Source: an uncultured Gemmatimonadota bacterium
GTDB lineage: Bacteria; Gemmatimonadota; Gemmatimonadetes; Palauibacterales; Palauibacteraceae
Assembly: GCA_964509895.1 (NCBI GenBank)
Contig: CAZDZJ010000119.1
Span: 817 to 64,816, forward strand
Direction: 5' to 3'
DNA: 64,000 bases
Both the position numbers and the translations under genes were made by a program. Below are positions 3,605-20,887 of this stretch, piece after piece. Under the pieces are notes generated by a model. It made no database searches. It saw nothing but the letters and a program-made list of their open reading frames with translations, and was not told where the DNA came from. Positions within the stretch are counted from its first letter, which is position 1, and each line of letters begins with the position of its first letter.

Positions 3605-4115
3605 GGGAGTCTCGGTTCGCCCGGCCCGGGTCGAAGACATCGACGAACTCGTCGCCATGTGGACCCGGTACATGAGGATCCACGCCCACAATCCCGCTTA
3701 CCGGCGGCTTCGGACGGACGCGATCGAAACGCGCGCCGGCATGTTCCGACGCCATATCGAGGAGGCCACGAGCGTCGTCTTCGTGCTGGAGGCGGAAGAT
3801 GGCGGCCTCGACGGCATGCTGGTCTGCTTCGTGGAGGAGAACGAGCCGCTCTTCGACCCGCCTCGCTACGTCCGCATTCAGACGCCTTTCGTTCGGCGCG
3901 AGGCGCGGCGGCGCGGGCACCTTCGGCGCCTGCTGGGCGCCGCCTTCGAGTGGGCGTCGGACTGGGACATCCATGAGGTGCGCCTCTTCACCGGTGCGGA
4001 CAACCTCATCGCCAACGCGCTGGCCGACGATCTGGGTTTCGAGGCGGTCGAGGTCGTGCGCCGCTATTCGCTCCGCCCCGAACCGGAAATGAACCCGGAG
4101 GATTGGCTCGAATGA
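3597..4115 (+). CDS. GNAT family N-acetyltransferase
   Basis: GTG 3597 lies 8 nt after GGAGG (3584-3588); TTG 3588 is an alternative. It overlaps the upstream stop. N-terminus VRPARVEDIDELVAMW, and an acetyl-CoA-binding-like segment RREARRRGHLRRLLGAAFEWA typical of the GNAT fold. Confidence 0.75.
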   Translation: MSEGVSVRPARVEDIDELVAMWTRYMRIHAHNPAYRRLRTDAIETRAGMFRRHIEEATSVVFVLEAEDGGLDGMLVCFVEENEPLFDPPRYVRIQTPFVRREARRRGHLRRLLGAAFEWASDWDIHEVRLFTGADNLIANALADDLGFEAVEVVRRYSLRPEPEMNPEDWLE

Positions 4116-4969: not shown

Positions 4970-5011
4970 TATTCTTAGCTGGGACTGAGAAACCGGAATC
5001 AGGAGAACCTC

Positions 5012-6367: not shown

Positions 6368-6407
6368 CGGCACGCGTCCGCAGAGTTTGCCGGGAGAAAG
6401 CGACGCC

Positions 6408-7340
6408 GTGAACCGGCGGCTGGCCGGGCGCGTGGCGATAGTGACGGGCGCCGGCCGCGGGATCGGCCGGGCCCACGCGCTCGCGCTGGCGGCCGGCGGG
6501 GCGAGCGTCGTCGTCAACGACCTCGGCACGGGCGTCGGCGGCGAGGGTGCCGACAGCGGCCCGGCGCAATCCGTCTGCGCCGAGATCCGGGCCGGCGGCG
6601 GCCGAGCCGTGGCCAGCCGTCACGACGTCTCCGACTGGACCGCCGCCCGCGACCTCGTCGCCCTTGCGGTCGATGCCTTCGGGGGTCTCGACATCCTGGT
6701 CAACAACGCCGGCATCCTCCGCGACCGTGCCCTCTTCAACATGTCCGAAGACGAGTGGGACGCGGTCGTGGCCGTCCACCTCAAGGGCCACGCGGCGCCC
6801 AGCCGGCACGCGCTGGCGTGGTGGCGCGCCGAGGCCAAGGCGGGCCGCCCGCGCGCGGCCTCCGTCATTCACACCACGTCCTCTTCCGGATTGTGCGGCA
6901 ACTTCGGACAGGCGAACTACGGGGCCGCGAAGATGGGCGTCATCGGTCTCTCGAAGGTCCTTTCCATCGAGGGCGCCCCGTACGGCGTCCGCTCGAACGT
7001 GATCTCGCCCTCCGCGCGCACGCGCATGGTGGCCGGCATGACGGGAGCCGAACAACTCGGCGAGCCGGACGAGACCGGGTACGACCCGTTCGGACCCGAG
7101 CACATCGCCGTCGTGGCGGCGTGGCTGGCCGAGGCCGACTGCCCGGCGAGGAACCAGGTGTTCCACGTGTCCGGGCGGCGGGTGCGCGTCCTTGAAGTCC
7201 CGGGCATCGCCTTCGAGGCCACGTCGGAGCGCGACTTCACCCCGGCCGCGCTCGGCGGCGCGATTGGCGAGCGGCTCGTTGTTCCGTTGGACGCCTTCGA
7301 TCTGATCCTGGGCCGAAATCGGCCCGCAGCGGCGGGTTAG
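6408..7340 (+). CDS. SDR family oxidoreductase (MFE-2-type hydroxyacyl-CoA dehydrogenase-like)
   Basis: GTG 6408 with GGAG about 11 nt upstream; TTG 6387 is the ORF-track alternative. Motifs: VAIVTGAGRGIGRAHAL, NNAGI, and YGAAK (YxxxK). Confidence 0.85.
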   Translation: MNRRLAGRVAIVTGAGRGIGRAHALALAAGGASVVVNDLGTGVGGEGADSGPAQSVCAEIRAGGGRAVASRHDVSDWTAARDLVALAVDAFGGLDILVNNAGILRDRALFNMSEDEWDAVVAVHLKGHAAPSRHALAWWRAEAKAGRPRAASVIHTTSSSGLCGNFGQANYGAAKMGVIGLSKVLSIEGAPYGVRSNVISPSARTRMVAGMTGAEQLGEPDETGYDPFGPEHIAVVAAWLAEADCPARNQVFHVSGRRVRVLEVPGIAFEATSERDFTPAALGGAIGERLVVPLDAFDLILGRNRPAAAG

Positions 7341-7397
7341 TTGCACTCCGCGGGAAGCCGGCAGGCGGTCAACCGTGAGGGGCACCGGCGGCGACGC

Positions 7398-7425
7398 TTG
7401 ACGATTCCGGCCACGGCGATAGAGT
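7398..7425 (+). promoter_or_regulatory. putative sigma70-like promoter for the ACP/hydrolase pair
   Basis: TTGACG (7398-7403), a 16-nt spacer, then TAGAGT (7420-7425), in the 165-bp gap after the SDR gene and about 80 nt upstream of ATG 7506. Pattern match only. Confidence 0.35.
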
Positions 7426-7505
7426 ATCGGGCGCGGCACCGAGCGATCGCGCCGCACATCATCGCAGGCGTACCCGTTTCCTACTCTTTGTGAAAGGCAG
7501 CACCG

Positions 7506-7724
7506 ATGGCCGCTGAAGCTCGCCTCCGAGAACTCGTCGCCGAGCATCTGGACCTGGGTCGTGAACCGCAGTGGGACGGCGGGATCGCGGATTCAGGCAT
7601 CTCCTCGCTCGACGCCGTCGCCTTCAAGAAGGTCGTCGAGCAGGAATTCGGCGTCTCAATCCCCCCGGAGTGCTTTGACACGCTGCGCAAGCTGGCCGCG
7701 TACATCGACTCCCAGGCCGGCTGA
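7506..7724 (+). CDS. discrete acyl/peptidyl carrier protein
   Basis: 72 aa. The helix-II phosphopantetheine-site context IADSGISSLDAVAFKKVVEQEFGVSIP matches the carrier-protein pattern (G-x-D/S-S-L-D-x-V). Confidence 0.8.
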   Translation: MAAEARLRELVAEHLDLGREPQWDGGIADSGISSLDAVAFKKVVEQEFGVSIPPECFDTLRKLAAYIDSQAG

Positions 7725-7787
7725 ACGCACCTCACCGGCACTTGACCGCGCCCTCCCGGGCCGACCGGTTCGGGGGGGCGGGGTGAC

Positions 7788-8702
7788 ATGAGTTCCGGCA
7801 CCGTTTGGAGGTTACCGGAACCGCATTCCGTAGATGACGTCCGGCACGACGACGGCAGCGTCACCAGATTGCGACGACACGGGAACCCCCGGGGTCTCCG
7901 ACTGCTCGTGGGCCACGGCAACGGTCTCGCGGTCGACCTCTACTACCCGTTCTGGTCGCGGCTCCTGGACGACTTCGATGTATTCGTCTACGACCTGAGG
8001 AACCACGGGTGGAACGCCATCGGCCCGCGCAGCGGGCACAACGTCCCCAACCTGATCCAGGACCAGGAACAGGTCGTCGAGGCTCTGGCCGCGCGTTACG
8101 GCCGGGCGCCCACGATCGGGGTCTTCCACTCCCTGTCGGCGCTTACGGCACTCCTCTCCGATTCGCTCGGCACCGGCCGCACTGGCGATCTGTCGGCCTG
8201 GATCCTCTTCGATCCGCCGCTCTACAAGCCGAGGCTGGGCGAGGCCGAGTTCGACAAGTCCGCCGACAGGTCCGCGGAACTCGCGCGGCGCCGCACGGAT
8301 CGGTTCGGCAAGGAGGCCGAGTTCTCGGAACTCCTCCATCACCTGGTGCTGACGCGGGCCGTGCCCGGTGCCGCGGACCTGATGGCCAGCACCGTCCTGC
8401 GGAAGTCGGCGGACGGTGAGAGCGTCGAGCTTCGGTGCCCCCGCGAATACGAGGCTCAGATCTTCTCGTACGCGCGCACCTACGCCTTCCTCGTGGATCT
8501 CGGAGATCTGCCGTGCCCGACCAAGGTCATCGGATCGGATCCCACGATGACGTTCGCATACATGCCGAGCTTCAACCTCAGTCACATCAACACGGTCGAC
8601 TACGACTTCATCCCGGAATCCACGCACTTCCTCCAGGTGGAGCATCCGAGGGAGTGCGCCGACCTGATGCGCGCCTTCCTCGAGGAACACGGCCTCCTGT
8701 AG
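7788..8702 (+). CDS. alpha/beta hydrolase
   Basis: Oxyanion HG motif LLVGHGNG, nucleophile elbow variant GVFHSLSA, and C-terminal catalytic His context PESTHFLQVEHP. Convergent with the permease gene. Confidence 0.75.
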   Translation: MSSGTVWRLPEPHSVDDVRHDDGSVTRLRRHGNPRGLRLLVGHGNGLAVDLYYPFWSRLLDDFDVFVYDLRNHGWNAIGPRSGHNVPNLIQDQEQVVEALAARYGRAPTIGVFHSLSALTALLSDSLGTGRTGDLSAWILFDPPLYKPRLGEAEFDKSADRSAELARRRTDRFGKEAEFSELLHHLVLTRAVPGAADLMASTVLRKSADGESVELRCPREYEAQIFSYARTYAFLVDLGDLPCPTKVIGSDPTMTFAYMPSFNLSHINTVDYDFIPESTHFLQVEHPRECADLMRAFLEEHGLL

Positions 8703-8736
8703 CCAGGCCTCCCGTCGCCGGGCCACGCGCCGCCCT

Positions 8737-10482
8737 CTATGGGACGGCGACTCTCACGGTGACGATGTCCGTGTCGTGGTACTGCTGATGGCGAACCGAC
8801 GAAGCGAGGTGGCGCAGGAGGCGCAGCGATACCTCGCTCTCCGCGGACGTCTCCCCGACCTCCCCGCTCAGCAGAGCGAGGCGATCCTGGAGGTTCTCGT
8901 CCCGCGGTGCGACCACGAATTCGAGCGCGACCTCATCCTTGTCGCGGTGCGCGGACATCACGAGCCGACGCCGGGAGCGATCGTCTCCGGACGGCTCCGG
9001 CCGGGCCAGCGAGAGCAGCGCCTCCTCGGCGGCGGCGTCCAGACGGTCCGCGACCTCCTCATCCAGGCCGGCTTTCGCGGCGAAGGGCGCGAGGAACTCC
9101 CGAATCCGCGGTAGCGCCGAGGGCCCGAATTCGGTTTCGATGCGGGCTCGCCGGGGTTCGGTCAGGCGAAGGAAGAGGGTGAGGGCGATGGCCGTGAAGC
9201 CGCCCGCGTTCATCCCGTTCGCCAGCAGACCTCCGGCGAAGGCGGACACCTGATCGGGAAGAATGAGCCCATACTGGAATCCAACCCCCGTCAGGAATGC
9301 GAGACCGACGACGATGCCGTCGCGGTAGCCGAGTCCGCCCTGCAGGATGATCCTGAGGCCGATCGCGAACAGCATCGCGAGGAGGACGGTCAGGTAACCC
9401 GCGAAGACCGGATCCGGGATCGCGAGCACGACCGCGAACGCCTTGGGCAGAAACGCGAAGGCGATGAAGGCGGCGCCGGCCGCCAGACCCACCCCCCGCG
9501 CCGCGACGCCGGTGAGCTGCGTCAACGGGACGCTCGTGGTGGTGGCGCTGCCGGGCACCGTCCCGGCGAGACCGGCGAGGAGGTTGCCGACGCCGTCCAC
9601 GGCCACCGCCCCCTGCACGGCCCGGAAATCGGTCGCGCGACCCGCGCGCCGCCACGACACCCGCTGGATCGCGACAGCGCTGCTCATCGTCCGGATGGCC
9701 GCGATCACGGCAACGAGCAGGAACGAAGGCAGGAGGGTCCAGAAGGCCGGCCCGAAGCCGAGGTCGAAGCCGGGCGGACGCGGGCGCGGCAGCGCGACCC
9801 AGGCCGCGTCGGCTATGCGCTCCACATCGTAGAGGCCGTGAAGGCCGGCGATGGCGGTACCGACGATCACGCCGATCACCGGTGCCCACAGGCGGAGCGC
9901 CCCCGTACCGCGCAGGGCGATGCAGCCGATCAGGATCATGGTTGCGAAGAAGCTGAGTGCGGTGCCCGGGGGCCCGCTGCCGCCGGGCGCGGTGGCAAGG
10001 AGCCCCGACACGAAGGGCAGCACCGTCACCGGGATCAGCATGATCACCGTACCGGAGACGGATGGGGTCAGAATCCGCTGGAAGAGAGACAGCCGCCACG
10101 AAAGCAGCAGCGGGATGACCGCGGCGACCGCGACGAGCGTGGCGAGAAGGGCCGGGCCGCCCTCGGTGAGCGCCATGATGCTCGCGGGGATGAACGCGCC
10201 GGAGGTGCCCATCAGGAGAACGTGCCCCGTACCGAAGCGCCCGGCCCGGACGGCTTGCAGCATCGTCGCCAGTCCGCAGGCCGTGACGGACGCCAGCACC
10301 GCCCAGGAGAGATACTCCTCGCGCACTCCCGCGGCGCGCATGACGACCAGCGGGATCAACACGATCGCCGCGATGTTCAGCACGGCGAGCTGCAGCCCGA
10401 CGCCGAGCGCCAGGGGCGTCGGGGCCTTCTCGTCCGGCTCGTAGCGGACGCCGGCCCGGCCGTCCGCCGCGGAGGCGCTCAA
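8737..10482 (-). CDS. NCS2/SulP-superfamily (xanthine/uracil-permease-like) transporter with a C-terminal RsbW-like degenerate GHKL domain
   Basis: The TTG start overlaps the PKS stop (TTGA, 10479-10482). It is the only start codon upstream of the conserved VRYEPDE segment shared with the paralog at 41519-43276. About 440 aa of TM helices (LALGVGLQLAVLNIAAIVLIPLVV, VDGVGNLLAGLAGTVPGS), then about 135 soluble aa ending SLRLLRHLASSVRHQQYHDTDIVTVRV. Confidence 0.8.
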   Translation of the reverse strand: MSASAADGRAGVRYEPDEKAPTPLALGVGLQLAVLNIAAIVLIPLVVMRAAGVREEYLSWAVLASVTACGLATMLQAVRAGRFGTGHVLLMGTSGAFIPASIMALTEGGPALLATLVAVAAVIPLLLSWRLSLFQRILTPSVSGTVIMLIPVTVLPFVSGLLATAPGGSGPPGTALSFFATMILIGCIALRGTGALRLWAPVIGVIVGTAIAGLHGLYDVERIADAAWVALPRPRPPGFDLGFGPAFWTLLPSFLLVAVIAAIRTMSSAVAIQRVSWRRAGRATDFRAVQGAVAVDGVGNLLAGLAGTVPGSATTTSVPLTQLTGVAARGVGLAAGAAFIAFAFLPKAFAVVLAIPDPVFAGYLTVLLAMLFAIGLRIILQGGLGYRDGIVVGLAFLTGVGFQYGLILPDQVSAFAGGLLANGMNAGGFTAIALTLFLRLTEPRRARIETEFGPSALPRIREFLAPFAAKAGLDEEVADRLDAAAEEALLSLARPEPSGDDRSRRRLVMSAHRDKDEVALEFVVAPRDENLQDRLALLSGEVGETSAESEVSLRLLRHLASSVRHQQYHDTDIVTVRVAVP

Positions 10483-13400
10483 GCCCCGGTCTCGATCCAG
10501 TGGCGTCGGCGCTGGAACGGATAACCGGGCAGCGCAATCCGGCGTCTCGTCTCACCGGCAAACAGGCCCACGAATGAGACCGGGAGCCCTGCCTCGTACG
10601 CTCTCGCCACGGCGACCGGGAACGGATGTTCGGCACCACCCCGTTCGTCGGGCCAGTCGCCGAGCGCCGCCGGGCCCGCGGACGAGGACGGCCCGATTTC
10701 GATCACGTGGTCGACACCGAGGTCCGCCAGCGCCCGGGAGGTACGGCCGCGATCTCCGCGCGCCGACGCCTGCTCGCGCCAGTAGGCACCGTCCGGTGCC
10801 CGCGCGGCATCCATCCGCCGGCCCGTCACCTGGCTGATGATCGCCATCGCAGGCGATGAGAGTCCCATCCCCTGCGCGGCGGCTTCCAGCTCTTCCAGTG
10901 GGTCGCTCTTCGGGTCGTCCGGATCGTCGCCCGGCATGGCGGCCGCCAGGCGCTGCTTCGGCCGGGCCATGGCGGCTCCCCTCGCCGCCGAGAGCCGCAG
11001 CCCGTCGTCCAGGCTGAAGATCCCGGCGACCCAGCCGGCGGCCAACTCGCCGACACCGTGTCCCGCCACCGCGCCGGGGCGGATGCCGGCGCTCGCCCAG
11101 AGCGCCGTGAGCGCGCAGCCCAGTGCGTAGGCGGCCGGCTGCGCCCACTCGGGATCCCGCAGCGTTCCCTGCGCGCCTGCGCGGCCGAACATCACGTCGA
11201 GAAGCGATGCCCCGTCACGTTCCTCCCCGAGCACCAGTTCACAGCGATCGAGGATGGCGCGCACGACCGGCTCCCGGTCGTACAGCTCCTCGCCCGACCC
11301 GTCCCGGGCGCCCTCCTCTCCGGCGAAGACGAAGGCCACCTTCGGAGCGGTGCCCGGCCCGGCGTCGCGGCGCCACTCGTCCTCGACCTCCCGCTCGGCG
11401 AGGACGCCCAGTCCCTCGCGGAGCGACGCGACATCGCGGAAAACGAGGCCGGCCCGGTGTGCGAGGTGAGACCGGCCGACGCCCGCCGTCCAGGCCATGT
11501 CCGCGAGCACCGAGGCCCCGGCGCCACCCTCGTCGGGCACCCCTTCCGGCGCCTCGCCAACGCGTCCCTCCAGCCACTCGAGGTACAGCCGCGCCAGCTC
11601 CCTCAACGCCCGGGGCGACTTCGCCGAAAGAGGCAGAAGGCGCGTCTCCCGGGGTCCGGCATCGCCGGCGAGCGGCGGCCATCCCTCCGACTCGGGAAGG
11701 GCGAGCGGAACCGTGACCCCGGGGCCCGCAGGCATCCGGGCTCCGTTCAGGATCGAAGCGCGGTCCGGCCCGCCGTTCCCCTCGACGACGACGTGCGCGT
11801 TCGTCCCCGAAATCCCGAACGAACTCACCCCTGCCCTGGGCGGACGATCGCCGTTCGACGGCCACGCCACGGCCTCGTCGGTGACCCGCACCGGGAGATC
11901 CTCCCAGGCCAGGTGGGGGTTCGGGTTGTGGAAGTGCAGCTGCTTCGGGATCCGGCCTTCGTTCATGGCGAGGACGGCCTTGATCAGGCTCGCGATCCCG
12001 GCCGCGCACTCGAGGTGGCCGATGTTCGTCTTCACCGAACCGATCAGGAGGGGCCGCTCCTCGTCGCGTCCCTCCCCGTAGACCGCCGCGGCCGCCTGCA
12101 CCTCGATCGGGTCGCCGAGATCGGAGCCCACCCCGTTCGCCTCGAGGTAGTCCACCGACGCCGGCGCCACGCCCGCCCGTGCGAGCGCCTCCTCGATCAC
12201 GCGTTCCTGGGCCGGCCCGTTGGGGACGGTGAGCCCCGCGCTGGTCCCGTTCTGGTTGACCGCGGATCCGCGGATCACACCCCAGATCCGGTCGCCGTCG
12301 GCCTTCGCATCGGCGAGCCGCTTGAGGACGACCACCCCGCAGCCCTCTCCGCGCACGAACCCGTCCGCCGCCGCATCGAAGCTGTGGCAGGTTCCACTCG
12401 CCGAGAGCAGCCCGACTTCCTTCATGAAGGTGGCCGTCTCGGGCCACAGGATCGCGTTGACGCCTCCGACGAGGGCCAGTTCCACTTCTCCCTGCCGGAC
12501 CGCGGCGGCGGCCTGGTGAACGGCCACGAGCGAGGAGGCGCACGCCATGTCGAGTGGGACCGCGGGCCCGGTGAGACCAAGGGCGAAGGAGATCCGGCCC
12601 GCGGTCACGCTCATCGTCGTCCCCAGGTATCCGTGTCCATGGCCCATGGCCGCGGCAAGGTCCCTGTAGTCTCCCGTCGTGACGCCCGCATAGACCCCCG
12701 TATTCGTGCCCTTCAGCCGCGCCGCATCCAGGCCGGCGTCCTCCAGTGCGTGCCACGTCGTCTCGAGCAGGAGACGCTGTCGCGGATCCATCATGCGCGC
12801 CTCGATCGGGGTGATCCCGAAGAAGCGCGCGTCGAACTTGTCGATATCCTCGAGGAACGCGCCGCGGCGCGAGTTGGGGTCCTCGGAGGCGGGATCCCCG
12901 GCCACGCCGTTCCACGGACCCGCGTCCCGGCGTCCGTCCGTGACCGCATCCACCCCGGCGTCGAGCTGGCGCCAGAAGGCGGCGAGGTCCGGCGCGCCGG
13001 GGAAGCGGCATGCCATGCCGACGATCGCGACGCCGTCGTCCTCGGCCTCCCCGGCACCGGCCGCCGAGTCTCCCACGGCCGGTTGGACCGGCGCCTCCGT
13101 GGCGGCTTCCGGCGTGGCGGCAGGCGCCTCGCCCCCTTCGCCGAGTGCCTCGGCCAGGTGCGCGGCGAGTTCGGCGATGTTGGGATAGTCGAACACCAGC
13201 GTGTTCGGCGCCGTGTACGTCCCGGCGAACGCCCGGTTCAGCCGGTTCCGCAGCTCCACGGCCATCAGCGAGTCCATCCCGAGATCGAAAAATCCCACGG
13301 TGGGAGCCGGGGCCGACGACAGCCTCAGGACAGCCTGAACCTCGCCCTGCACGAAAGAGACGAGGAGGTCCTGCCGCTCCGCCGCCAGCGTTCCGCGGAG

Positions 13401-16400
13401 TCGCGTGAGGACGTCCTCGGAGGACGAGGCGTCACCCGCCCGGGCCTCGGACGCCGCGGAGAGCAGGTCTTCGAGCATGGGCGGAGGGTCGTCGACGGCC
13501 TCCTCGAACACGTCCCAATCCATCGACATGACGACGGATGCCGTGGCGTCCTGCCGCACGAGCCGGTCGAACGCCCGCATGCCCTGCTGCGGGGTGAACC
13601 AGCGGCCTCCGAGGGCCGAGCGCTGCCGGTCGATCCGGTCGCGCTGTTCCGCGGCTTCCCCGATGTCCGACCAGGCACCCCAGGCGATGGCCTGCCCCGG
13701 GAGCCCCAGCGCGCGGCGGTGGCCGGCGAGCTGGTCCAGAAAGGCGTTCGCCGAGGCATGGTTCGCCTGGCCCGGATTCCCCATGACCCCGACGCGGCTC
13801 GAGAAGAGCGTGAAGAAGTCCAGGTCGAGGTCGCGCGTGGCGCCGTGCAGGTGCCAGGCACCGAGAATCTTGGGCCACAGCACGCGCTCGAAGCGCTCCC
13901 AGTTCTGGTTCGTGAGCGCGCCATCCGACAGCACGCCCACGCTGTGGATCACGCCGCCGAGCGGCGGCAGGTCGCGCTCGATGCGAGCGAGCATGCCGTC
14001 GATGGCGGCCTGGTCGGTCATGTCGGCCAACTCGACCTGGACCGTCACGCCGCGCTGCCGGAGCGCGCCGATGGCCTCTTCGGCCTCCGGATCCGGGTCC
14101 CGGCGGCCGTTCAGCACGACCGCGCCCGCGCCCCGCTCGGCGAGCCAGTTGGCCACGGCGATCCCGATCCCGCCCAGGCCACCCGTCACCAGGTAGCTCC
14201 GATCTCCCCGCAACCCGCCCCGCACGAGGGGCGGCGTTGTCACGACGATCTTCCCGAGGTGGCGGGCCGAGCGCATGAACGACAGCGCGGCGCCCGCTTC
14301 GGCCAGCGGCCACCGGCTGTGCACGATGGGCTCGATTTCGCCCGTCGAGAGCTGCTCCATCACCCCCCGCAGCACCCGCCCGACCCATGCCGGGTCGGTC
14401 TTCTTGAGCACATCCAGTTCGAGGATCCAGTACCCCACGTCAGGGCGCACGGCCGCCATCTCCTCCTCGGTGAGGATGTCGCGCCGGGCCATCTCGACGA
14501 AGCGGCCGCCTTCCCGGAGGCAGGCGAGGCTCGCGTCGATGAAGCCCTCGCTCGTGAGGCTGTTCAGGACCACGTCCACGCCCTCGCCACCCGTCGCCTC
14601 CAGGATCTCGTGCCCGAAGTCGGTCGTGCGGCTGTCGAACACGTGCTCGACGCCCAGCGAGCGCAGATACGCCTGCTTCGGGACGCTCGCCGTGGCGAAC
14701 ACCTCCGCCCCGGCTGCCTGCACGAGCTGGATCGCGGCCAAGCCCACGCCGCCCGCGCCCGCGTGGACGAGGACGCGCTCGCCCGCCTCCAGCCCGGACA
14801 ACTCGAAGGAGAGCGCCGCCGACACGTACGCGCTCGGCACCGTCGCCAGTCCGCTCACGGAGAAGCCATCCGGCGCGGGGGCGACCAGCTCCTCGTGCGT
14901 GATCATCTGCGGCCCGAAAGCTCCGAAGCCGAGACCCACGATGTGATCGCCGACCGAGACGGAAGACACTTCCGGGCCCACCTCGAGGATGTGGCCGCAC
15001 ATCTCCCGTCCGAGGAGGCCCTCCTCGATGAAGCCGAGCGACCGGAACACGTCCCAGAAATTCAGGCCGGAGGCCTCGACCGCGACGCGGACTTCATGCG
15101 GTTCCAGCGGCCGCGCGGGCAGGGGCTGCACGTACGGCCGGTCGAACACGCCCCCCGTGTCCGGCGCCAACACCCATTCCGTCTCCTCCGGGAACTCGAG
15201 GCGCTCGGCGCCGGCGCCCATGCGCACGAGACGCGCCACCTGACGGCTTCCACGCCGGTACGCGATGTGATTCTCGGGGTCCGGGTAGAGGAGTTCGTTG
15301 GCAAGATCCGGTTCCGCCGCCATCGAGCCCGGATCGAGGTCGAGCATGCGCGGCTCCAGGTGCGCGGCTTCCCGGGCCACCCCCTTGCCGAATCCCCACA
15401 CGGCGGCGCCAGCGAGTTCTCCGCCCCGCTCGCGCTCGAGGATCTGTGCCCCCCGGGTGATGAACCACACGCCCCTTTCGGGGGTCAGATCCGAATCGCC
15501 CACGCCCTGCACGAGCGCGAGCGCGCTCGCCACGGCACGTTCGACATCCGCCGCCATCTCCTCGGTCGTGGCGCGCTCCCCGTGCCCGTCCAGCGCCGCG
15601 AGGTGTACGGCGCCGCAGAACGGGACGTCCCCCGGCAGACTCTCGATCAGCGAGCGCCACGCCTCGCGGTCGCCCCCATCCGTCGCGCTCGCCACGACGA
15701 CGGTCTGGTTCCGCGCCCTCATCCGGGCGGCCAGCCTCTCCGCCACTCCTCCATCGTCCGCCGCGAGAACCCAGGCGCCGGCGGACTCGGTCACCTTCGC
15801 CGGGCCCTGCGCCACGATCACGCCCTTGTCGAGCTTCATGTCCGGATCGGACTCGTCCACGCCGAGGATCTCGACCGCCTCGAACCCCGCGTCGCCGAGG
15901 GCCTGCCGCCATACGCCGGGACCGGCCAGCGCGTGGTGCGGGCGGTAGTCGTCGGCGAAGCGCCACCAGCCGTCGAGCTGTCCGAACGTCAGGTCCATCC
16001 AGCCCAGGCCCGTGAGGTTCTCGAGCGCGACGATCTGCCCGGATGGCGCCATGAGGTCCCTGCAATGCCCGAGCGTCTCCTCCAGGTATCGCGTCGCGTG
16101 CAGCACGTTCGAGGCGATCATGAGGTCGTAGCCGTGGGCGTCGAAGCCCTGGGCGATGGGATCCTTCTCGATATCCAGGGGACGGTACTCGATGCATCCG
16201 CCGGCGTCGCCGAAGCGCGCCTCCGCCTCCGCGAAGAAACCGGCGGAGATGTCCGTGTACACGTAGTCGAACCGCCCTTCCGGAAGCTCCGGGAGTACCG
16301 ACGCGGTCGCCGACCCCGTCCCCGCCCCGACCTCGATCACGCGCAGGCGGCGGCCCTCGGGGAGCGCGGCGACCAGCGCCCGCACCGCCTCGGCCAGCAT

Positions 16401-19400
16401 CTCGTTGGCCGCTCGCGCGACGGGCGCCTTCAGGTACAGGTCGGCGGCCGTCGGTTCCCCGCTGCTGAACAGGAGCGTGAGGGGATCGGCGTCACCCCGG
16501 AGCGCATCGGCCAGTGCCATGCCCGAGCGACGGAAGAGGCCAACCTCCGTGAGGCCGTGCGCATGGCGGCCGGCCATCTCGGTCGCGAACGCTTCGAGAT
16601 CCCGCGGCAGGTGCTCCGGCAACGGGTCGTCCGGGCCCACAAGGATGTGGAAGCCCTCGGCCGTCTCCTCCGCCACGCCGCACCAGTCGAGCATCTCGAA
16701 CATGCGGCGGAAGAGGCGTCCGTGTTCCGGGAGCACATCCAGCTTCTGCCGGAGTCGCTCCGGGTCCACCGTCTCCCCGGCCGTCCTGCGCCAGCCCAGA
16801 TCCTCGAGGGTCCGGAGGGCGCGGGCGTGCGACCAGCGCTCCAGATCGGCCAGGAGGGCGTTCCGGTCCTCCGGATCGACGCCCGCGTCCGTCAGGTAGC
16901 CCGCGAACAACTGCGCGCCCCCCGCGATGGCGGCGGGGCTCGGGAAGAAATCGGCGGGGTCGATCCCCTTCGGAAGGTCGCGTTCGCGCCACACGACCTC
17001 GTACAGCAGATCCTTGACCCCCTCGACCGCCGAGAGCAGCGCCTGCCGGGTGGCCCGCTTCACCGTGTAGCCGCTCAGGCGGCCGAGCGGCGTGCCGTCC
17101 GGATCGTAGATGCGGAGTTCGCCGCTCAGGACCTCCGCGGGCTCGCCCCCTTCGGCTTCCGCCTCACGCGAGGCTTCGCTCAGGCGGACGTGACAGACCA
17201 CCCGGTCGGGCAGCCGCCCGGCCAGCCACAGCCGCTCCCAGCCGAACGGGAGATACGTGGCGCCGCCCTCGCTTCCCGCCACGTTGCGGGCCACGCCCAC
17301 GGCCTGGAAGCAGCCGTCCAGCACGAGCGGATGCACGTCGAGTCCGTGCCCGGCCATCCCCTCCGGGAGCGAGACCTCGGCCACCGCCTCCCCCGGCCCG
17401 GACCACGCCCTCCCCAGCGTGCGGAAGGACGGACCGAGGTCGACGCCGGTGCTCGCCCGGTGGCGGTAGTATTCCGCCACTTCCACGCGGGAGAGATCGG
17501 CCTTGAGGCCCTCGAGGTCGGTGCGGCCGCCGTCTTCAGGGTCGGGAACGCCGACCGCCAGGCGGCCCTCCACGTGGACCGTCCACACGCCCCCGCTCCC
17601 CCGGCTGAAGATCTGGACGCCGCGCGGCGCGGTCGGATCGGGAGCATCGAGCACGACCTGCAGCGTCCGCCCCGCCGCGTCCGCTTCGCCCTCGTCCTCA
17701 TCGAAGACGAGCGGGTTGTGCAACTGCATCTCCTCGACGACGACCGATCCCCCCTCCTCGAGGAGGGACGCCGCTATCGTCATGGCCCCGTACAGCGCCC
17801 CGGGCGCCACGACGCGGCTGAACACCCGGTGGTCGTCCATCCAGGCCGGATCCGAGGGGAAGACCTCCGTCTCGAAGGTGATCTCGCCGCGCGCGGACTC
17901 ATGCCGCGCCCCGAGAAGCGGGTGCTCCGCGCCCCCGCGCCGGCGTTTCGGGAGGGCGATCCAGTGATGCTTCCGCTGGAACGGGTAGCTGGGCAGCGAG
18001 ATCCGGCGCGGCGCCTCTCCCGCGAACAACCCGGCGAAACGGATGGTGAGGCCCGCCTCGTATGCCTCGGCCACCGCCTCGGTAAAACCATCCGGGCCGC
18101 CGGAGCCCGGATCGTCCGGCGCGGGCGGGCGAAGGCTCGAGAGCACCACCGGCGCCCGCGACGACTCCGGCCAGGCCGAGGCCGCCATCGGGGCCAGCAC
18201 CGACCTCGGGCCGATTTCCAGCACGGCATCCACGCCGAGTTCCGCGAGCGCCTCCACCCCCTGGGCGAAGGCCACCGCCTCCCGGGCATGCCGCCGCCAG
18301 TAGGCCCCATCCAGCGTCTGACCCGGTTCCACGGCCCGGCCCGTCAGGTTGCTGACCACGGTGAGGGAGGGCGTTCCGATCGCGGCGCCCTCGAGGCACG
18401 CCTCCAGTTCATCCAGGATGGGTTCCACCAGGGCGCTGTGGAACGCCCGCTTCGTGTTGAGGCGCCTGACCCGGACGCCTTCCTCGTCCAGGCGCTTCGA
18501 GATGGTCTCGATGTCCGCGACCGGCCCGCTGACGACCTGGTGACTGCCGTTGTAGCCCGAGATGCCGAGCCCCGCACCGGAAGAACCCGCGTTCACCGCC
18601 TCGACCGCCGACGCCACCTGCTCGGGCGGGGCGAACACGGCGGCCATGGCGCCCTCCTCCATGCCCGACATCAGCGCGCCCCGCGTGGCCGCGAAGCGCA
18701 TGCCGTCTTCGAGGCTGAATACGCCCGCCGCCTGGGCCGCGGCGATCTCTCCGATGCTGTGGCCCACGACCACGGCGGGACGGACGCCGAGGCTCGACCA
18801 CAGCGCCGTCAGCGCGCACCCCAGGGCGTAGAGCGCCGGCTGCTCCCAGGCCGTATCGCCGAGATCCGCGCTTCCGCCGCCACGCCCGAACATGACGTCG
18901 AGCAGCGAGCTTCCCCGTTCCTCCAGGAACACCGCCTCGCAGCGGTCCAGGACGGCCCGGGCCACCGGCTCGCTCTCGTAGAGCGCCGCTCCCATGCCGG
19001 CCCACTGGCTGCCCTGCCCCGTGTAGGCGAAGGCCACGCGGGCCGGCGCGGCGGACGGCTCGCCCTCCTCCGTTGCGGCCAGCGCGCGGAGTCCTTCGCG
19101 CAACGTCTCCGCATCGCGGAAGACCACGCCCGCGCGATGGTCGAAGTGGCTCCGTCCCACGCCCGCCGTCCACGCCATGTCGGAGAGGAGCGGGTCCGAA
19201 GCGAGGTCGCCGGAAGAAAGTTCCCCCGCGTGCTCGTCCAGCCAGGACAGGTACCGCCCGGCGAGGTCGCGGAGCGCACCCCGGGACTTGCCGGACAGCG
19301 GAAGGACACGCGTCGTGCGGTGTTCGACCTCCGGCCCCGTCGATTCCGGCACGCCTCGCGCCATCGGAACCGGCACCGGAATCGCGGCGCCCGCGGCCCA

Positions 19401-20750
19401 CTCTCCATCGACGGACGCACCCTCCGCGTCGCGGTACTCCTCCATCACGACATGGGCGTTCGTCCCCGATATCCCGAACGAGTTGACCCCGGCGCGCCGC
19501 GGCCGTCCCGGTTGATCCGGCCAGTCCATCATCGACGACGTCACCCGCAGCGGAAGACGATCCCAGTCGACATTCGGGTCGGGATTCCGGAAATGGAGGT
19601 GCCGTGGAATCACGCCGCGGTTGAGGACCAGCGCCGCCTTGATCACGCCCGCCACGCCCGCCGCCGATTCGAGATGCCCGATGTTCGTCTTCACCGAACC
19701 GATGAGAAGCGGGCGCCCCGCGTCGCGGCCCTCCCCGTAGACGGCGGACACGGCTTCGACCTCGATCGGGTCGCCCACCGTGGTGCCGGTCCCGTGAGCC
19801 TCCAGGTAGTCGACGTCCGAGGGAGAAACGCCCGCGTCCGAGAGCGCCGCGTGCATCACCTCTTCCAGGGCGGGCGTGTGCGGCACGGTGAGCCCGGTCC
19901 CCGCACCCCCGTGGTTCACCGCCGAGCCGCGGATCACCGCCCAGATCCGGTCGCCGTCCCGCTCCGCCTCGCTCAGCCGCTTGAGGACGACGACCCCGCA
20001 GCCTTCGCCCCGCACGTACCCGTTTGCCGAGGCGTCGAAGGTCTTGCACTGCCCATCCGGCGACAGCATCATCGCGTCCGCGCGCAGCTCGTAGATGCGG
20101 CCGTTGAGGATCGCCTGCACGCCGCCCGCAATGGCGAGGTCCGCCCTGCCCTGCTGCAGATCCGCCACCGCGTCGTGGACCGACACCATGGAGGATGCGC
20201 ACGCGGCGTCCACCGCCTTGGCCGGCCCCCGGAGCCCGAGCACGAAGGAGACGCGTCCGCTCGTGCCGTTCAGGTTCGTGCCGCTGAGCGCGTAGAGACA
20301 GCTGGCGGCCTCGGCCGGCTTGCTCGAGTCCACGACGAGCATGCGGTACTCGTCGTTGCTGATCCCGGTGTAGACGCCGGTGAGCGTCTCCCTGAGCCCG
20401 TCGGGATCCATCCCCGCGTCCTCGAGCGCCTCCCACGTCGTCTCCAGCATCATGCGCTGCTGCGGGTCCAGCAGCTCCGCCTCCACCGGCGAGATCCTGA
20501 AGAAGGCGTCGTCGAAGAGGTCGATGTCATCCACGAAAGCGCCGAAACGGCAGCCATCGCTCTGCACGGCATCGTCCCCGAAGATCTGGCCCCAGCGCCC
20601 CACGCCGGAACCCGGGACTCCCTCCTGGACGGAGTTCCCGCCCTCTTCGAGCAATCGCCAGAAGGCCGGAATGCTCGACGCGCCGGGAAAACGGCACGCC
20701 ATCCCTACGATCGCGATCGGCTCGCCCCGCCGCCCGTTCCTATCCGCCAT
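10479..20750 (-). CDS. type I polyketide synthase: KS-AT-DH-cMT-psiKR-ER-KR-ACP-KS(C-N-H)-AT(degenerate)
   Basis: Start at ATG 20750; the upstream GTG 20801 is also open. Domains by motif, given as minus-strand nt ranges: KS1 19437-20723 (DAACASS, EAHGTGT, NIGHLE). AT1 18162-19040 (GQGSQW, GHSIGE, RAFHS). DH 17052-17930 (HPLLG, DDHRVFSRVVAP, LDGCFQ, LPFGW). cMT 15852-16604 (VIEVGAGTG). psi-KR 15312-15779. ER 14241-15194 (LVHAGAGGVG). KR 13542-14204 (VTGGLGGIG). ACP 13143-13379 (LGMDSL). KS2 11778-13031 (DMACASS, EANGVGS, NIGHLE). AT2 remnant 10677-11345 (GHGVGE). No TE, R or C release domain. Confidence 0.97.
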   Translation of the reverse strand: MADRNGRRGEPIAIVGMACRFPGASSIPAFWRLLEEGGNSVQEGVPGSGVGRWGQIFGDDAVQSDGCRFGAFVDDIDLFDDAFFRISPVEAELLDPQQRMMLETTWEALEDAGMDPDGLRETLTGVYTGISNDEYRMLVVDSSKPAEAASCLYALSGTNLNGTSGRVSFVLGLRGPAKAVDAACASSMVSVHDAVADLQQGRADLAIAGGVQAILNGRIYELRADAMMLSPDGQCKTFDASANGYVRGEGCGVVVLKRLSEAERDGDRIWAVIRGSAVNHGGAGTGLTVPHTPALEEVMHAALSDAGVSPSDVDYLEAHGTGTTVGDPIEVEAVSAVYGEGRDAGRPLLIGSVKTNIGHLESAAGVAGVIKAALVLNRGVIPRHLHFRNPDPNVDWDRLPLRVTSSMMDWPDQPGRPRRAGVNSFGISGTNAHVVMEEYRDAEGASVDGEWAAGAAIPVPVPMARGVPESTGPEVEHRTTRVLPLSGKSRGALRDLAGRYLSWLDEHAGELSSGDLASDPLLSDMAWTAGVGRSHFDHRAGVVFRDAETLREGLRALAATEEGEPSAAPARVAFAYTGQGSQWAGMGAALYESEPVARAVLDRCEAVFLEERGSSLLDVMFGRGGGSADLGDTAWEQPALYALGCALTALWSSLGVRPAVVVGHSIGEIAAAQAAGVFSLEDGMRFAATRGALMSGMEEGAMAAVFAPPEQVASAVEAVNAGSSGAGLGISGYNGSHQVVSGPVADIETISKRLDEEGVRVRRLNTKRAFHSALVEPILDELEACLEGAAIGTPSLTVVSNLTGRAVEPGQTLDGAYWRRHAREAVAFAQGVEALAELGVDAVLEIGPRSVLAPMAASAWPESSRAPVVLSSLRPPAPDDPGSGGPDGFTEAVAEAYEAGLTIRFAGLFAGEAPRRISLPSYPFQRKHHWIALPKRRRGGAEHPLLGARHESARGEITFETEVFPSDPAWMDDHRVFSRVVAPGALYGAMTIAASLLEEGGSVVVEEMQLHNPLVFDEDEGEADAAGRTLQVVLDAPDPTAPRGVQIFSRGSGGVWTVHVEGRLAVGVPDPEDGGRTDLEGLKADLSRVEVAEYYRHRASTGVDLGPSFRTLGRAWSGPGEAVAEVSLPEGMAGHGLDVHPLVLDGCFQAVGVARNVAGSEGGATYLPFGWERLWLAGRLPDRVVCHVRLSEASREAEAEGGEPAEVLSGELRIYDPDGTPLGRLSGYTVKRATRQALLSAVEGVKDLLYEVVWRERDLPKGIDPADFFPSPAAIAGGAQLFAGYLTDAGVDPEDRNALLADLERWSHARALRTLEDLGWRRTAGETVDPERLRQKLDVLPEHGRLFRRMFEMLDWCGVAEETAEGFHILVGPDDPLPEHLPRDLEAFATEMAGRHAHGLTEVGLFRRSGMALADALRGDADPLTLLFSSGEPTAADLYLKAPVARAANEMLAEAVRALVAALPEGRRLRVIEVGAGTGSATASVLPELPEGRFDYVYTDISAGFFAEAEARFGDAGGCIEYRPLDIEKDPIAQGFDAHGYDLMIASNVLHATRYLEETLGHCRDLMAPSGQIVALENLTGLGWMDLTFGQLDGWWRFADDYRPHHALAGPGVWRQALGDAGFEAVEILGVDESDPDMKLDKGVIVAQGPAKVTESAGAWVLAADDGGVAERLAARMRARNQTVVVASATDGGDREAWRSLIESLPGDVPFCGAVHLAALDGHGERATTEEMAADVERAVASALALVQGVGDSDLTPERGVWFITRGAQILERERGGELAGAAVWGFGKGVAREAAHLEPRMLDLDPGSMAAEPDLANELLYPDPENHIAYRRGSRQVARLVRMGAGAERLEFPEETEWVLAPDTGGVFDRPYVQPLPARPLEPHEVRVAVEASGLNFWDVFRSLGFIEEGLLGREMCGHILEVGPEVSSVSVGDHIVGLGFGAFGPQMITHEELVAPAPDGFSVSGLATVPSAYVSAALSFELSGLEAGERVLVHAGAGGVGLAAIQLVQAAGAEVFATASVPKQAYLRSLGVEHVFDSRTTDFGHEILEATGGEGVDVVLNSLTSEGFIDASLACLREGGRFVEMARRDILTEEEMAAVRPDVGYWILELDVLKKTDPAWVGRVLRGVMEQLSTGEIEPIVHSRWPLAEAGAALSFMRSARHLGKIVVTTPPLVRGGLRGDRSYLVTGGLGGIGIAVANWLAERGAGAVVLNGRRDPDPEAEEAIGALRQRGVTVQVELADMTDQAAIDGMLARIERDLPPLGGVIHSVGVLSDGALTNQNWERFERVLWPKILGAWHLHGATRDLDLDFFTLFSSRVGVMGNPGQANHASANAFLDQLAGHRRALGLPGQAIAWGAWSDIGEAAEQRDRIDRQRSALGGRWFTPQQGMRAFDRLVRQDATASVVMSMDWDVFEEAVDDPPPMLEDLLSAASEARAGDASSSEDVLTRLRGTLAAERQDLLVSFVQGEVQAVLRLSSAPAPTVGFFDLGMDSLMAVELRNRLNRAFAGTYTAPNTLVFDYPNIAELAAHLAEALGEGGEAPAATPEAATEAPVQPAVGDSAAGAGEAEDDGVAIVGMACRFPGAPDLAAFWRQLDAGVDAVTDGRRDAGPWNGVAGDPASEDPNSRRGAFLEDIDKFDARFFGITPIEARMMDPRQRLLLETTWHALEDAGLDAARLKGTNTGVYAGVTTGDYRDLAAAMGHGHGYLGTTMSVTAGRISFALGLTGPAVPLDMACASSLVAVHQAAAAVRQGEVELALVGGVNAILWPETATFMKEVGLLSASGTCHSFDAAADGFVRGEGCGVVVLKRLADAKADGDRIWGVIRGSAVNQNGTSAGLTVPNGPAQERVIEEALARAGVAPASVDYLEANGVGSDLGDPIEVQAAAAVYGEGRDEERPLLIGSVKTNIGHLECAAGIASLIKAVLAMNEGRIPKQLHFHNPNPHLAWEDLPVRVTDEAVAWPSNGDRPPRAGVSSFGISGTNAHVVVEGNGGPDRASILNGARMPAGPGVTVPLALPESEGWPPLAGDAGPRETRLLPLSAKSPRALRELARLYLEWLEGRVGEAPEGVPDEGGAGASVLADMAWTAGVGRSHLAHRAGLVFRDVASLREGLGVLAEREVEDEWRRDAGPGTAPKVAFVFAGEEGARDGSGEELYDREPVVRAILDRCELVLGEERDGASLLDVMFGRAGAQGTLRDPEWAQPAAYALGCALTALWASAGIRPGAVAGHGVGELAAGWVAGIFSLDDGLRLSAARGAAMARPKQRLAAAMPGDDPDDPKSDPLEELEAAAQGMGLSSPAMAIISQVTGRRMDAARAPDGAYWREQASARGDRGRTSRALADLGVDHVIEIGPSSSAGPAALGDWPDERGGAEHPFPVAVARAYEAGLPVSFVGLFAGETRRRIALPGYPFQRRRHWIETGA

Positions 20751-20811
20751 GACAGATCCCCTTGCCGGCCGGCTTCCCCGAACCGGACATTGGTTGGCCA
20801 CAGAATGTGAT

Positions 20812-20831
20812 TGAAATATGTCCTGAAATAT
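20812..20831. promoter_or_regulatory. direct repeat TGAAATAT x2 in the divergent PKS/creatininase control region
   Basis: TGAAATAT occurs at 20812-20819 and 20824-20831 (12-bp period) in the only AT-rich stretch of the spacer. It is flanked by the inverted heptamers GTTGGCC (20793-20799) and GGCCAAC (20848-20854). Confidence 0.4.
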
Positions 20832-20887
20832 CGCGTCGTAGTAGTCCGGCCAACGCGGCCCGGCGAAGAGACGACAGGAGGAGGACG

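Follow-up and report, generated by a model that had tools for sequence, protein, structure and literature searches.

The window, by which we mean the whole stretch of 64,000 nucleotides that was analysed, contains on its reverse strand the gene of a SupE-type permease, which is directly attached to the gene of a Sup-type PKS and carries a C-terminal tail resembling the anti-sigma factors RsbW and SpoIIAB. The coordinates of these genes, their neighbours and the parts of the tail are collected in the table below. The permease reading frame begins with the codon TTG, and the junction between the two genes reads ...GGG GCT TGA / TTG AGC GCC, so that the stop codon of the synthase and the start codon of the permease share four nucleotides. 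This overlap, which had been pointed out in the first-pass annotation, is real and conserved, as it recurs in the form of TTGA, ATGA or GTGA in at least 10 other related loci (L001, L002, L005-L008, L032, L045, L064 and L071). It had also been argued that the overlap ties the stoichiometry of the permease to that of the synthase; translational coupling can be maintained as a description of the arrangement, but a fixed stoichiometry does not follow from it.

Features of the permease gene, its product and its neighbours in the window
Feature	Position	Strand	Description and basis
Stand-alone acyl carrier protein (ACP)	7506..7724	+	72 aa, motif GISSLD; conserved cluster member
Alpha/beta hydrolase gene	7788..8702	+	304 aa; convergent with the permease gene; conserved cluster member
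SupE-type permease gene with RsbW-like pseudokinase tail	8737..10482	-	581 aa; stop codon 8737-8739; ORF, Pfam, NCBIfam
Nearly invariant motif EVSLRLLRHLASSVRHQQYHDTDIVTVRV	8749..8835	-	Degenerate G2 position (S552), helix, two last strands
Strand and degenerate G1 loop EVALEFVVAPRDENLQD	8884..8934	-	A525 at the adenine-binding Asp position; N530 invariant
N-box-equivalent helix EEVADRLDAAAEEALLSL	9007..9060	-	E486, E487 (nearly) invariant; S491 at the Mg-ATP Asn position
C-terminal cytoplasmic tail, residues 442-581	8740..9159	-	RsbW/SpoIIAB-like Bergerat fold without ATP-binding residues; AlphaFold2, Foldseek, hhalign
Membrane domain, residues 1-441	9160..10482	-	NCS2/SLC23 fold; PF00860; UapA and UraA alignment; family column counts
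TTGA overlap of PKS stop (TGA) and permease start (TTG)	10479..10482	-	Sequence read directly
Sup-type PKS	10479..20801	-	3440 aa; KS-AT-DH-MT-ER-KR-ACP-KS-AT; Pfam

The last KS-AT pair of the synthase lacks key catalytic residues, as judged by motif inspection. The alpha/beta hydrolase gene was found in 16 related loci as well as in L001-L004, and in the latter four a PP-binding gene occupies the same place as the stand-alone ACP of the window. The closest relatives of the permease come from Candidatus Palauibacter, with 89% identity to the 581-aa protein, and from MAGs whose names point to sponge origin. The sup cluster, which in sponge-associated bacteria we take to consist of a PKS of one module, containing an MT domain and ending in a further KS-AT, and of a permease gene attached to it, is recognizable in the window by its PKS domain order, the overlapping permease gene and the sponge-linked relatives. 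The permease of the window corresponds to SupE of this cluster, and from the gene context we infer that the two are orthologous; both are permease genes joined directly to a single-module PKS of the Sup type in sponge-associated bacteria. In the literature, 'SupE (ABE03914) permease' is given as the nearest homologue for a permease of 557 aa that lies between anti-anti-sigma genes (PMC3908369, Table 1), and the Sup enzymes have been proposed to be makers of mid-chain-branched fatty acids (PMC4245539). In the papers covered by our literature searches SupE is called a permease and no tail is mentioned, and the searches brought up nothing relevant to its function.

A divergent NCS2-type membrane domain

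The membrane part of the protein had been described in the first-pass annotation as 'NCS2/SulP-type', of which the first half stands and the second does not: it is NCS2 (SLC23-type) by its match to PF00860 (Xan_ur_permease), which spans residues 28-402 (E 3e-31; 108.9 bits vs a cut-off of 27), and it is not SulP. Residues 7-401 align to UapA and residues 90-389 to UraA, and the permease misses the NCBIfam NCS2/pbuX cut-offs (TIGR00801, 153.5 vs 291.8; TIGR03173, 173.3 vs 414). The signature of the NAT transporters is [Q/E/P]-N-x-G-x-x-x-x-T-[R/K/G], to which a Glu in TM8 is added. Like the NCS2 nucleobase transporters UraA, UapA and XanQ, the permease family has kept the T-G-x-x-x-R with which the TM10 motif ends; unlike them, it has replaced the Q/E-N of the signature by T/S-S/G, and column counts found Q/E-N at this position nowhere in the whole family. 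In the permease of the window T316-S317 lie opposite Q408-N409 of UapA in an alignment of low identity, and the TM8 Glu is absent as well.

The PKS-linked permeases, that of the window included, form one clade and have R264/S268 in TM8. R264 is found in all 29 of them (29/29), whereas other permeases mostly have E, D or Q there. The E-x-x-x-D pair of the paralogues has the same spacing as E356/D360 of UapA, although pairing the two requires a two-residue shift of the UapA alignment. The transport site of the PKS-linked clade is predicted from sequence to be altered, with R264/S268 instead of the E/D pair of the paralogues. The NCS2 nucleobase transporters are also without the 140-aa tail that the permease of the window adds. 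Taken as a whole, the permease is a divergent 14-helix transporter of the NCS2 fold, of the SupE type of the sponge-symbiont sup cluster.

An RsbW-like tail without ATP-binding residues

The separate soluble domain of the permease comprises residues ~445-580. The first-pass annotation had proposed that an RsbW/SpoIIAB-like domain follows the membrane domain, and this was borne out by structure prediction, structural search and profile comparison. The AlphaFold2 model, computed from an alignment of 58 sequences (mean pLDDT 76), is of moderate confidence, with residue equivalences based on weak profile alignments, and runs in the order strand, helix, helix, strand, strand, disordered lid, helix, strand, strand, in agreement with the earlier placement of the N-box helix, the G1 strand and the G2 box with the last strands. 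A single-sequence model was dropped, its first strand having been built as a helix. When the alignment-based model was compared with the PDB by Foldseek, ranks 1-21 were all taken by RsbW, SpoIIAB, UsfX and the RsbW domain of Rv1364c (E 8e-8 to 1.5e-3, with TM values of 0.27-0.82 on the target, the low values of two Rv1364c chains being due to a target of ~350 residues), and histidine kinases appeared below rank 21 only.

The Pfam model PF13581 (HATPase_c_2) matches residues 454-567 below its gathering threshold of 27.4 bits, with 23.8 bits (E 4.7e-5) for the tail alone and 19.7 bits with the whole permease as query; it is matched at E <= 0.01 by 26 of 58 diverse relatives, and a few members of the family exceed the threshold in precomputed Pfam hits. 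When the PDB was searched by sequence, using either the tail by itself or the 58-sequence tail profile, only chance matches such as Rad50 and histone H3 came back. By hhalign, the tail family aligned over 135 columns to a profile of genuine RsbW proteins together with SpoIIAB and RsbW (Prob 89.8, E 2.1e-7), a significance that was reached only after the RsbW kinases from partner-switch loci had been added; against a three-sequence SpoIIAB/RsbW profile the match was insignificant (E 0.34), with the first two helices alone aligned. Furthermore, the HMMs of the tail and of the RsbW kinases that occur at its own loci find each other reciprocally. Like RsbW, SpoIIAB and UsfX (PF13581), the tail has a Bergerat alpha/beta fold with its elements in the same order, the Glu of the N-box helix is retained, and R461, which is Arg in 186 of 226 tails, lies opposite R20 of SpoIIAB. 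On the other hand, those proteins are free and of ~140 aa, whereas the tail is fused to a 14-helix transporter, has a shorter lid and has an invariant C-terminal motif of its own.

In the kinases, the N-box Asn (N50 in SpoIIAB) coordinates Mg-ATP, and the G1 and G2 boxes are DxGxG and GxG. All three are absent from the tail family. The position of the N-box Asn is occupied by S491 in the window and, among 226 relatives, by T in 141, S in 60, A in 17 and N in 2, so that T, S or A is found in 218 of 226; the G1 Asp position has A525 in the window and Asp in 0 of 226 relatives; and the G2 Gly position has S552, with Ser in 224 of 226. Profile-profile alignment and these column counts thus confirm what had been noticed from a single sequence, namely that the ATP-binding Asn and the Gly boxes are replaced. 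Since the loss is family-wide, the tail is a GHKL pseudokinase, from whose sequence kinase or ATPase activity is not expected. In place of the ATP-binding residues there is a C-terminal motif of 29 residues that is almost invariant among the 226 relatives. The strongly conserved new surface motif comprises E486-E487, N530-LQDR and S552-LRLLRHLASSVRHQQYHDTD, and an invariant polar cluster is formed by H558, S561, S562, R564, H565, Q567, Y568, H569, D570 and D572.

The tail is unannotated rather than rare. Its family was found in at least 589 species-level genomes from many phyla (560 clusters at E <= 1e-10), and public records name the proteins 'uracil-xanthine permease family protein', 'solute carrier family 23 protein' or 'hypothetical protein'. 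The suggestion that the architecture is new holds in part: our literature searches found no published description of an NCS2 permease with an RsbW-like tail, but the tail is widespread and a few of its members already pass PF13581. The tail is always C-terminal, on permeases or permease fragments. A free-standing form of the domain was considered and rejected, as all short 'tail-only' proteins start inside the last transmembrane helices; they are cut-short gene calls, contig-end fragments, one frameshift (L085) and internal deletions. Two independent in-frame deletions leave a membrane anchor and the tail alone, and we count these sequences as support for a putative independent function of the tail.

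Partner switching and other possible roles of the tail

The gene next to the permease offers one candidate partner. The tail might dock the Sup PKS, the stand-alone ACP or the hydrolase and so tether the synthase to the membrane, with an acyl product or precursor being passed directly to or from the permease; this takes up the first-pass suggestion that the protein may be an exporter or sensor for the product, in its exporter form. The conserved 4-nt overlap, the conserved ACP and hydrolase neighbours, a Sup-type PKS that in about 32 of 84 loci is situated within 10 kb of the permease, and the grouping of the PKS-linked permeases into one clade with a changed transport site are consistent with such docking, for which the STAS domain of E. 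coli YchM/DauA, reportedly crystallised with ACP by Babu et al. in 2010, would be a precedent. However, where a PKS is missing within 10 kb, as in about 52 of 84 loci, the conservation of the tail and of its invariant motif is just as strong, which makes a PKS-specific partner unlikely, tail-only mini-proteins occur in unrelated contexts, and we know of no RsbW fold that binds ACP or KS-AT domains. We consider docking of the synthase quite improbable.

A different set of partners is encoded near related permeases. A STAS gene lies within 10 kb of the permease in 14 of 84 related loci, and 13 of the 14 also encode an intact RsbW kinase and a REC-PP2C (SpoIIE) phosphatase; the permeases adjoining these genes are paralogous ones. 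Gene orders vary among Nitrospinota-type, Nitrospirales and Defluviicoccus genomes, but the 11 Nitrospinota-type loci share synteny, so that only about four associations are independent. The linked STAS proteins retain the phosphorylatable Ser in the motif YISSAGLRA, and the loci encode an input of their own, consisting of a histidine kinase, a binding protein and REC-PP2C. At one locus (L102) the permease and the STAS gene are each present twice, and in another (L067) the STAS gene is located 216 nt downstream of the permease on the same strand. A comparable arrangement is found on fosmid pPS11G3, in which the SupE-like permease ORF17 is followed 82 nt downstream by the anti-anti-sigma ORF18, with a second anti-anti-sigma gene, ORF15, nearby (PMC3908369, Table 1). 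The searches of the related loci were directed ones, raw clustering of ORFs being noisy due to antisense ORFs in GC-rich DNA.

Other observations speak against a link to partner switching. Within 10 kb no STAS gene was found in 70 of 84 loci, an iterative search added none to the 14, and in the loci of the PKS-linked clade there was none except that of L067, which lies beside a second, paralogous copy of the permease. The window itself yielded no STAS, RsbW, PP2C or sigma-factor gene in an HMM search that took in every ORF of 50 aa or longer and in Pfam scans of 32 of the 44 candidate genes. The STAS subfamily was also tried as a permease-specific marker and rejected, because it is generic in a reciprocal scan from STAS, in which a permease was present at only 1 of 80 STAS loci.

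The scarcity of STAS genes near most loci would suit a tail that has no protein partner and acts as a dimerisation, stability or autoinhibitory domain, or confers small-ligand allostery through its remodelled nucleotide pocket. RsbW-type domains are known to dimerise, and the invariant polar cluster could, judging from its residues, make a ligand or metal site. Yet the polar and probably exposed motif is extremely conserved across phyla, which points to contact with a macromolecule or ligand and not to mere dimerisation, the adjacency to STAS genes is repeated with differing gene orders, and the canonical ATP ligands are all lost. A tail without a protein partner thus appears rather unlikely to us.

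The tail could also be a membrane-tethered anti-sigma factor that holds a sigma factor at the membrane and lets it go depending on the state of the transporter or on a STAS antagonist, with the permease serving as a sensor (transceptor) for transcription. Its nearest structural relatives are indeed anti-sigma factors, which bind sigma F or sigma B, and STAS antagonists are close by in some loci. In contrast to what is expected for such a role, and to RsbW, SpoIIAB and UsfX, no sigma-factor gene was found among the scanned window genes or the checked ORFs of L013 and L067; moreover, the partner-switch loci come with an input of their own, which fits the permease as an output and not as a sensor. 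We regard a tethered anti-sigma factor as very unlikely.

The reading that we prefer, to which we give an even chance, is that the tail is the docking site of a partner switch that gates the transporter, the transporter being the output of the switch. The tail would neither bind nor hydrolyse ATP and would serve as a protein-docking module. NCS2 transporters, RsbW and SpoIIAB are all homodimers, and therefore two tails would pair under the dimer of the transporter. A single-domain STAS protein would, while unphosphorylated, dock on the tail and switch transport either on or off. A second protein, an intact kinase of the RsbW type, would phosphorylate the STAS protein and thereby release it from the tail, and the REC-PP2C phosphatase, driven by the histidine kinase and a periplasmic binding protein, would reset it. 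The transporter would thus occupy the usual place of the sigma factor as the output of the partner switch. As the PKS-linked permease is co-translated with the synthase, the step regulated in its clade would probably be one in which a precursor or product of the Sup lipid pathway is taken up or released.

Comparison with other regulated transporters, and significance

A solute-carrier domain joined to a domain of the GHKL fold, as in the permease of the window, is also present in the CbrA type of transporter-kinase fusion, CbrA being an SLC5-like domain fused to a histidine kinase. In CbrA, however, the histidine kinase is active, has a DHp domain and signals through a response regulator, whereas the tail is RsbW-type, predicted to be inactive, and has no DHp. 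Partner-switching modules of STAS, RsbW and PP2C proteins are very common in bacteria, and their outputs are mostly sigma factors and a few enzymes; switches with outputs other than sigma factors include HsbA, SiaC, SypA and BtrV. In these systems and in AmtB-GlnK, as in the mechanism proposed here, a small signalling protein binds its target according to its state of covalent modification, and in AmtB-GlnK the target is a transporter. To our knowledge, no partner switch has been described whose target is a pseudo-RsbW domain forming part of a transporter. The SulP/SLC26-STAS carriers resemble the protein of the window in being 7+7 inverted-repeat transporters, a fold common to SLC26, SLC4 and SLC23 (PMC6497670), with a cytoplasmic C-terminal regulatory domain taken from the partner-switching toolkit; the window protein instead has an NCS2/SLC23 membrane domain and a domain from the RsbW side, not the STAS side. 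STAS-only proteins have been reviewed elsewhere (PMC8256260).

It is possible, and we suggest it tentatively, that this is the first partner switching to gate a transporter directly through a pseudo-anti-sigma tail, a mirror image of SLC26-STAS, distributed by gene transfer over at least 10 phyla of sponge symbionts and, in the Sup clade, controlling how a precursor or product of the abundant Sup lipid pathway flows. If this is true, the direct control of membrane transport would join the outputs of partner switching, as a complement to the STAS domain of the SLC26/SulP carriers, in a large family of at least 589 species-level genomes whose tail is nameless in current annotation. In PKS surveys of sponges the sup cluster is the dominant one, and for the questions of its product, its substrate and its regulation, which date from 2007, testable handles would be provided by the tail, by the residues R264/S268 of the changed transport site and by the linked genes for STAS proteins, kinases and phosphatases.

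The permease tail is an RsbW-like domain

The C-terminal cytoplasmic domain (residues 442-581, hereafter the tail) of the SupE-type permease is a real RsbW-like domain. In Pfam scans, PF00860 covers residues 28-402 of the permease and PF13581 (HATPase_c_2) residues 454-567, the latter below its cut-off of 27.4 bits (23.8 bits, E 4.7e-5, for the tail alone); 26 of the 58 diverse tail sequences in our alignment A1 match PF13581 at E <= 0.01, the sole further Pfam match among them being one GGDEF_2 (E 0.007). Among the NCBIfam models there is a weak match to RsbA anti-sigma. An AlphaFold2 model of the tail, built with A1 (mean pLDDT 76), has the order strand, helix, helix, strand, strand, short helix, disordered loop, helix, strand, strand, and agrees with the N-box helix, G1 strand, G2 helix and final strands assigned in the first-pass annotation. 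In a Foldseek search of the PDB, ranks 1-21 went exclusively to UsfX of M. tuberculosis, RsbW of B. subtilis, SpoIIAB of Geobacillus and the Rv1364c RsbW domain (E 8e-8 to 1.5e-3), with histidine kinases below them at E > 3e-3 and poor TM-scores. Aligned profile to profile, A1 and a set of genuine RsbW kinases, SpoIIAB and RsbW match over 135 columns (Prob 89.8, E 2.1e-7), and the tail and RsbW-kinase HMMs each detect the other's set.

The ATP-binding Asn and Gly boxes had been described as replaced, and this is borne out across 226 relatives. In the alignments the N-box Glu of SpoIIAB (E46) lies opposite the invariant E486-E487 of the tail, and its Mg-ATP Asn (N50) opposite S491, in a column holding T in 141, S in 60, A in 17 and N in 2 of the relatives. 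The G1 Asp position is A525, in a column where Asp never occurs, and the G2 glycines are partly deleted, one being replaced by S552 (Ser in 224 of 226). Because these three defining catalytic features are absent, the tail is best not filed with the kinase family; judged by its residues, it is a pseudokinase. Near-invariant instead are EVSLRLLRHLASSVRHQQYHDTDIVTVRV, a stretch of 29 residues, and N530-L-Q-D-R; both are kept even at an overall identity of just 50-60%, which points to a conserved contact surface and not to decay. R461, an Arg in 186 of the 226 tails, aligns with R20, a key partner-binding residue of SpoIIAB.

Two independent in-frame internal deletions have left short ORFs, intact and called at 181-207 aa, that encode only a membrane anchor and the tail, a hint that the tail may have a function of its own. 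One of these ORFs is divergent to a SulP-STAS transporter gene, and the other lies 164 nt past smpB.

The permease, its PKS and its relatives

The gene encodes a transporter whose RsbW domain is dead, and it is co-translated with a lipid-type PKS. The reported TTGA overlap of permease start and PKS stop is present at the junction (...GGG GCT TGA, next frame TTG AGC GCC), and the 4-nt overlap was found again in 10 loci from two phyla. The PKS has the Pfam domain order KS-AT-DH-MT-ER-KR-ACP-KS-AT. KS1 and AT1 are canonical; in the second pair, KS2 has the motif EANGVGS, with Asn for His at residue 2889, and AT2 the motif GHGVG, with Gly for Ser at residue 3249. Among 84 related loci, about 32 carry a Sup-type PKS within 10 kb of the permease, upstream or downstream and on the same strand except in two; the hydrolase and ACP genes are also kept in PKS-linked loci, and the PKS-linked permeases form one clade (the Sup clade) in a rough tree. 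Mid-chain-branched fatty acids have been proposed as the product of Sup enzymes (PMC4245539).

Coordinates of features in the window (GC ~70%) and in related loci (L numbers)
Feature	Position	Strand	Remarks
Permease gene	8737..10482	(-)	581 aa, TTG start
PKS gene	10479..20801	(-)	3440 aa; stop codon overlapped by permease start
PKS C-terminal KS-AT pair	10479-12500	(-)	residues ~2590-3440; without key catalytic residues
Permease, within TM8	9650-9700	(-)	residues 264 and 268
Stand-alone ACP gene	7506-7724	(+)	converges on permease gene
Alpha/beta hydrolase gene	7788-8702	(+)	converges on permease gene
Creatininase-family gene	20762-21799	(+)	divergent from PKS
DUF1592/DUF1588/DUF1585 protein, DUF1552 protein, then ankyrin-repeat protein	25531-31232	(+)	ankyrin-repeat protein 597 aa
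Two further transporters with regulatory domains	33294-38128	(-)	CitMHS with four TrkA_C domains; amino-acid permease with weak Usp match
MazF/PemK toxin gene	53911-54246	(-)	
Ribosomal protein L21	59915-60496	(-)	C-terminal E3_binding (peripheral subunit-binding) domain
Anchor-plus-tail ORF, L086/L087	7763-8546		N-terminus or TM1, last transmembrane helix, well-conserved tail
Anchor-plus-tail ORF, L088/L089	8001-8624 (L088)		as for L086/L087
Three permease-tail paralogues in a row, L052 (Binatia MAG)	3384-10480		
Split permease copy, L085	6986-8699		frameshift near residue 346-350; pseudogene or assembly error
Amt ammonium transporter, STAS-only gene, then type III glutamine synthetase, L067 (Defluviicoccus MAG)	11847-15807		STAS in place where GlnK is usual

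The membrane domain can be aligned with UapA and UraA but does not reach the NCBIfam NCS2 cut-offs. Where the NAT signature has Q/E-N, the window permease has T-S, and Q/E-N is absent family-wide. Outside the Sup clade, TM8 of the paralogues holds an E-x-x-x-D pair spaced as in UapA E356/D360; the two can be equated only with a two-residue shift of the UapA alignment. At position 264 the PKS-less paralogues among the 84 loci mostly have E, D or Q, and at 268 mostly D or N, and the 29 PKS-linked permeases invariably carry R264 together with S or G at 268. We infer that the presumed binding site has swapped its charge in the Sup clade, which would be compatible with an anionic substrate; given these TM8 residues and the missing NAT Q/E-N, a nucleobase seems an unlikely substrate.

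In a word-indexed database the tail matched 354 proteins, and every one inspected has its own start within the final membrane-spanning helices of this permease. An exhaustive profile search gave 753 clusters at E <= 1e-3 (560 at E <= 1e-10), in which full-length matches carry the tail at the C-terminus of a ~580-aa protein and the remainder are fragments, most likewise ending in the tail. At least 589 stretches of species-representative genomes encode it; the 80 matches listed are all MAGs, many with sponge-project names, from Gemmatimonadota, Alpha- and Gammaproteobacteria, Nitrospinota, Nitrospirales, Latescibacterota, Binatia, Acidobacteriota, Thermodesulfobacteriota and Opitutales. Further MAGs (L050, L067, L073) have two permease-tail paralogues each, in tandem. 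Eukaryote-like ankyrin-repeat proteins, the kind to which the 597-aa protein of the window belongs, are frequently reported from sponge symbionts. The nearest full-length permease relatives (87-89% identity) are from Candidatus Palauibacter, a Gemmatimonadota genus whose species names allude to sponges and corals (PMC10469786). Gemmatimonadota and Gammaproteobacteria copies share 73% identity, which suggests that the gene may have been transferred between phyla.

Partner-switch genes and a possible role of the tail

Paralogues of the window permease adjoin complete partner-switch gene sets. In 13 PKS-less loci the permease is followed by Pfam-confirmed signalling genes, namely those for a stand-alone receiver protein, a REC-SpoIIE (PP2C) phosphatase, a 140-aa RsbW kinase with intact N, G1 and G2 boxes, a HAMP histidine kinase, a periplasmic binding protein and a 112-aa STAS protein. 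Nitrospirales loci have another order, with RsbW convergent with the permease at 113 nt, then STAS and PP2C. In the Defluviicoccus locus a Sup-clade permease adjoins the PKS, and a STAS gene follows a second, paralogous permease by 216 nt; permeases and STAS genes number two each on one metagenome contig (L102). The phosphorylatable serine is retained in the STAS proteins. In a study of sponge PKS clusters (PMC3908369, Table 1), a 557-aa permease on fosmid pPS11G3 has 'SupE (ABE03914), permease' of a sup clone as its top homologue, and a pair of genes named 'anti-anti-sigma regulatory factor' flanks it, one of the pair 82 nt downstream. Since the Nitrospinota-type loci share synteny, the independent associations number only about four, and a reverse search from the STAS protein met the permease at only 1 of 80 metagenome loci, so that this STAS subfamily is generic.

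Both the fold and the signalling logic are already known. To the following reading we give about an even chance: two tails would dimerise beneath the transporter dimer and serve as a docking site for the unphosphorylated STAS protein, whose phosphorylation state would be set by the free RsbW kinase and the REC-PP2C phosphatase, and this docking would gate transport. No STAS gene was found within 10 kb of the permease in 70 of the 84 loci, and an HMM scan of every window ORF of 50 aa or more, with Pfam scans of 32 of its 44 candidate genes, found none for STAS, RsbW, PP2C or sigma factors. That the tail is a dimerisation or ligand-binding domain acting with no protein partner we regard as unlikely. 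Docking of the PKS or ACP on the tail is quite improbable, as it is weakened by the equal conservation of the tail where the PKS is absent, and a membrane-bound anti-sigma factor, against which stands the lack of any sigma-factor gene found nearby, is more improbable still.

The first-pass annotation knew of no description of a transporter with such a domain; our literature searches likewise found none for a domain of RsbW type on an NCS2 permease. The gene has been recorded simply as a permease, and public names of the protein are 'uracil-xanthine permease family protein', 'solute carrier family 23 protein' and 'hypothetical protein'. SLC26/SulP and SLC23 transporters have the 7+7 fold in common (PMC6497670), and the NCS2 permease with its RsbW-type tail is the mirror image of SLC26/SulP carriers with a STAS domain, its transport perhaps gated by a STAS partner switch.
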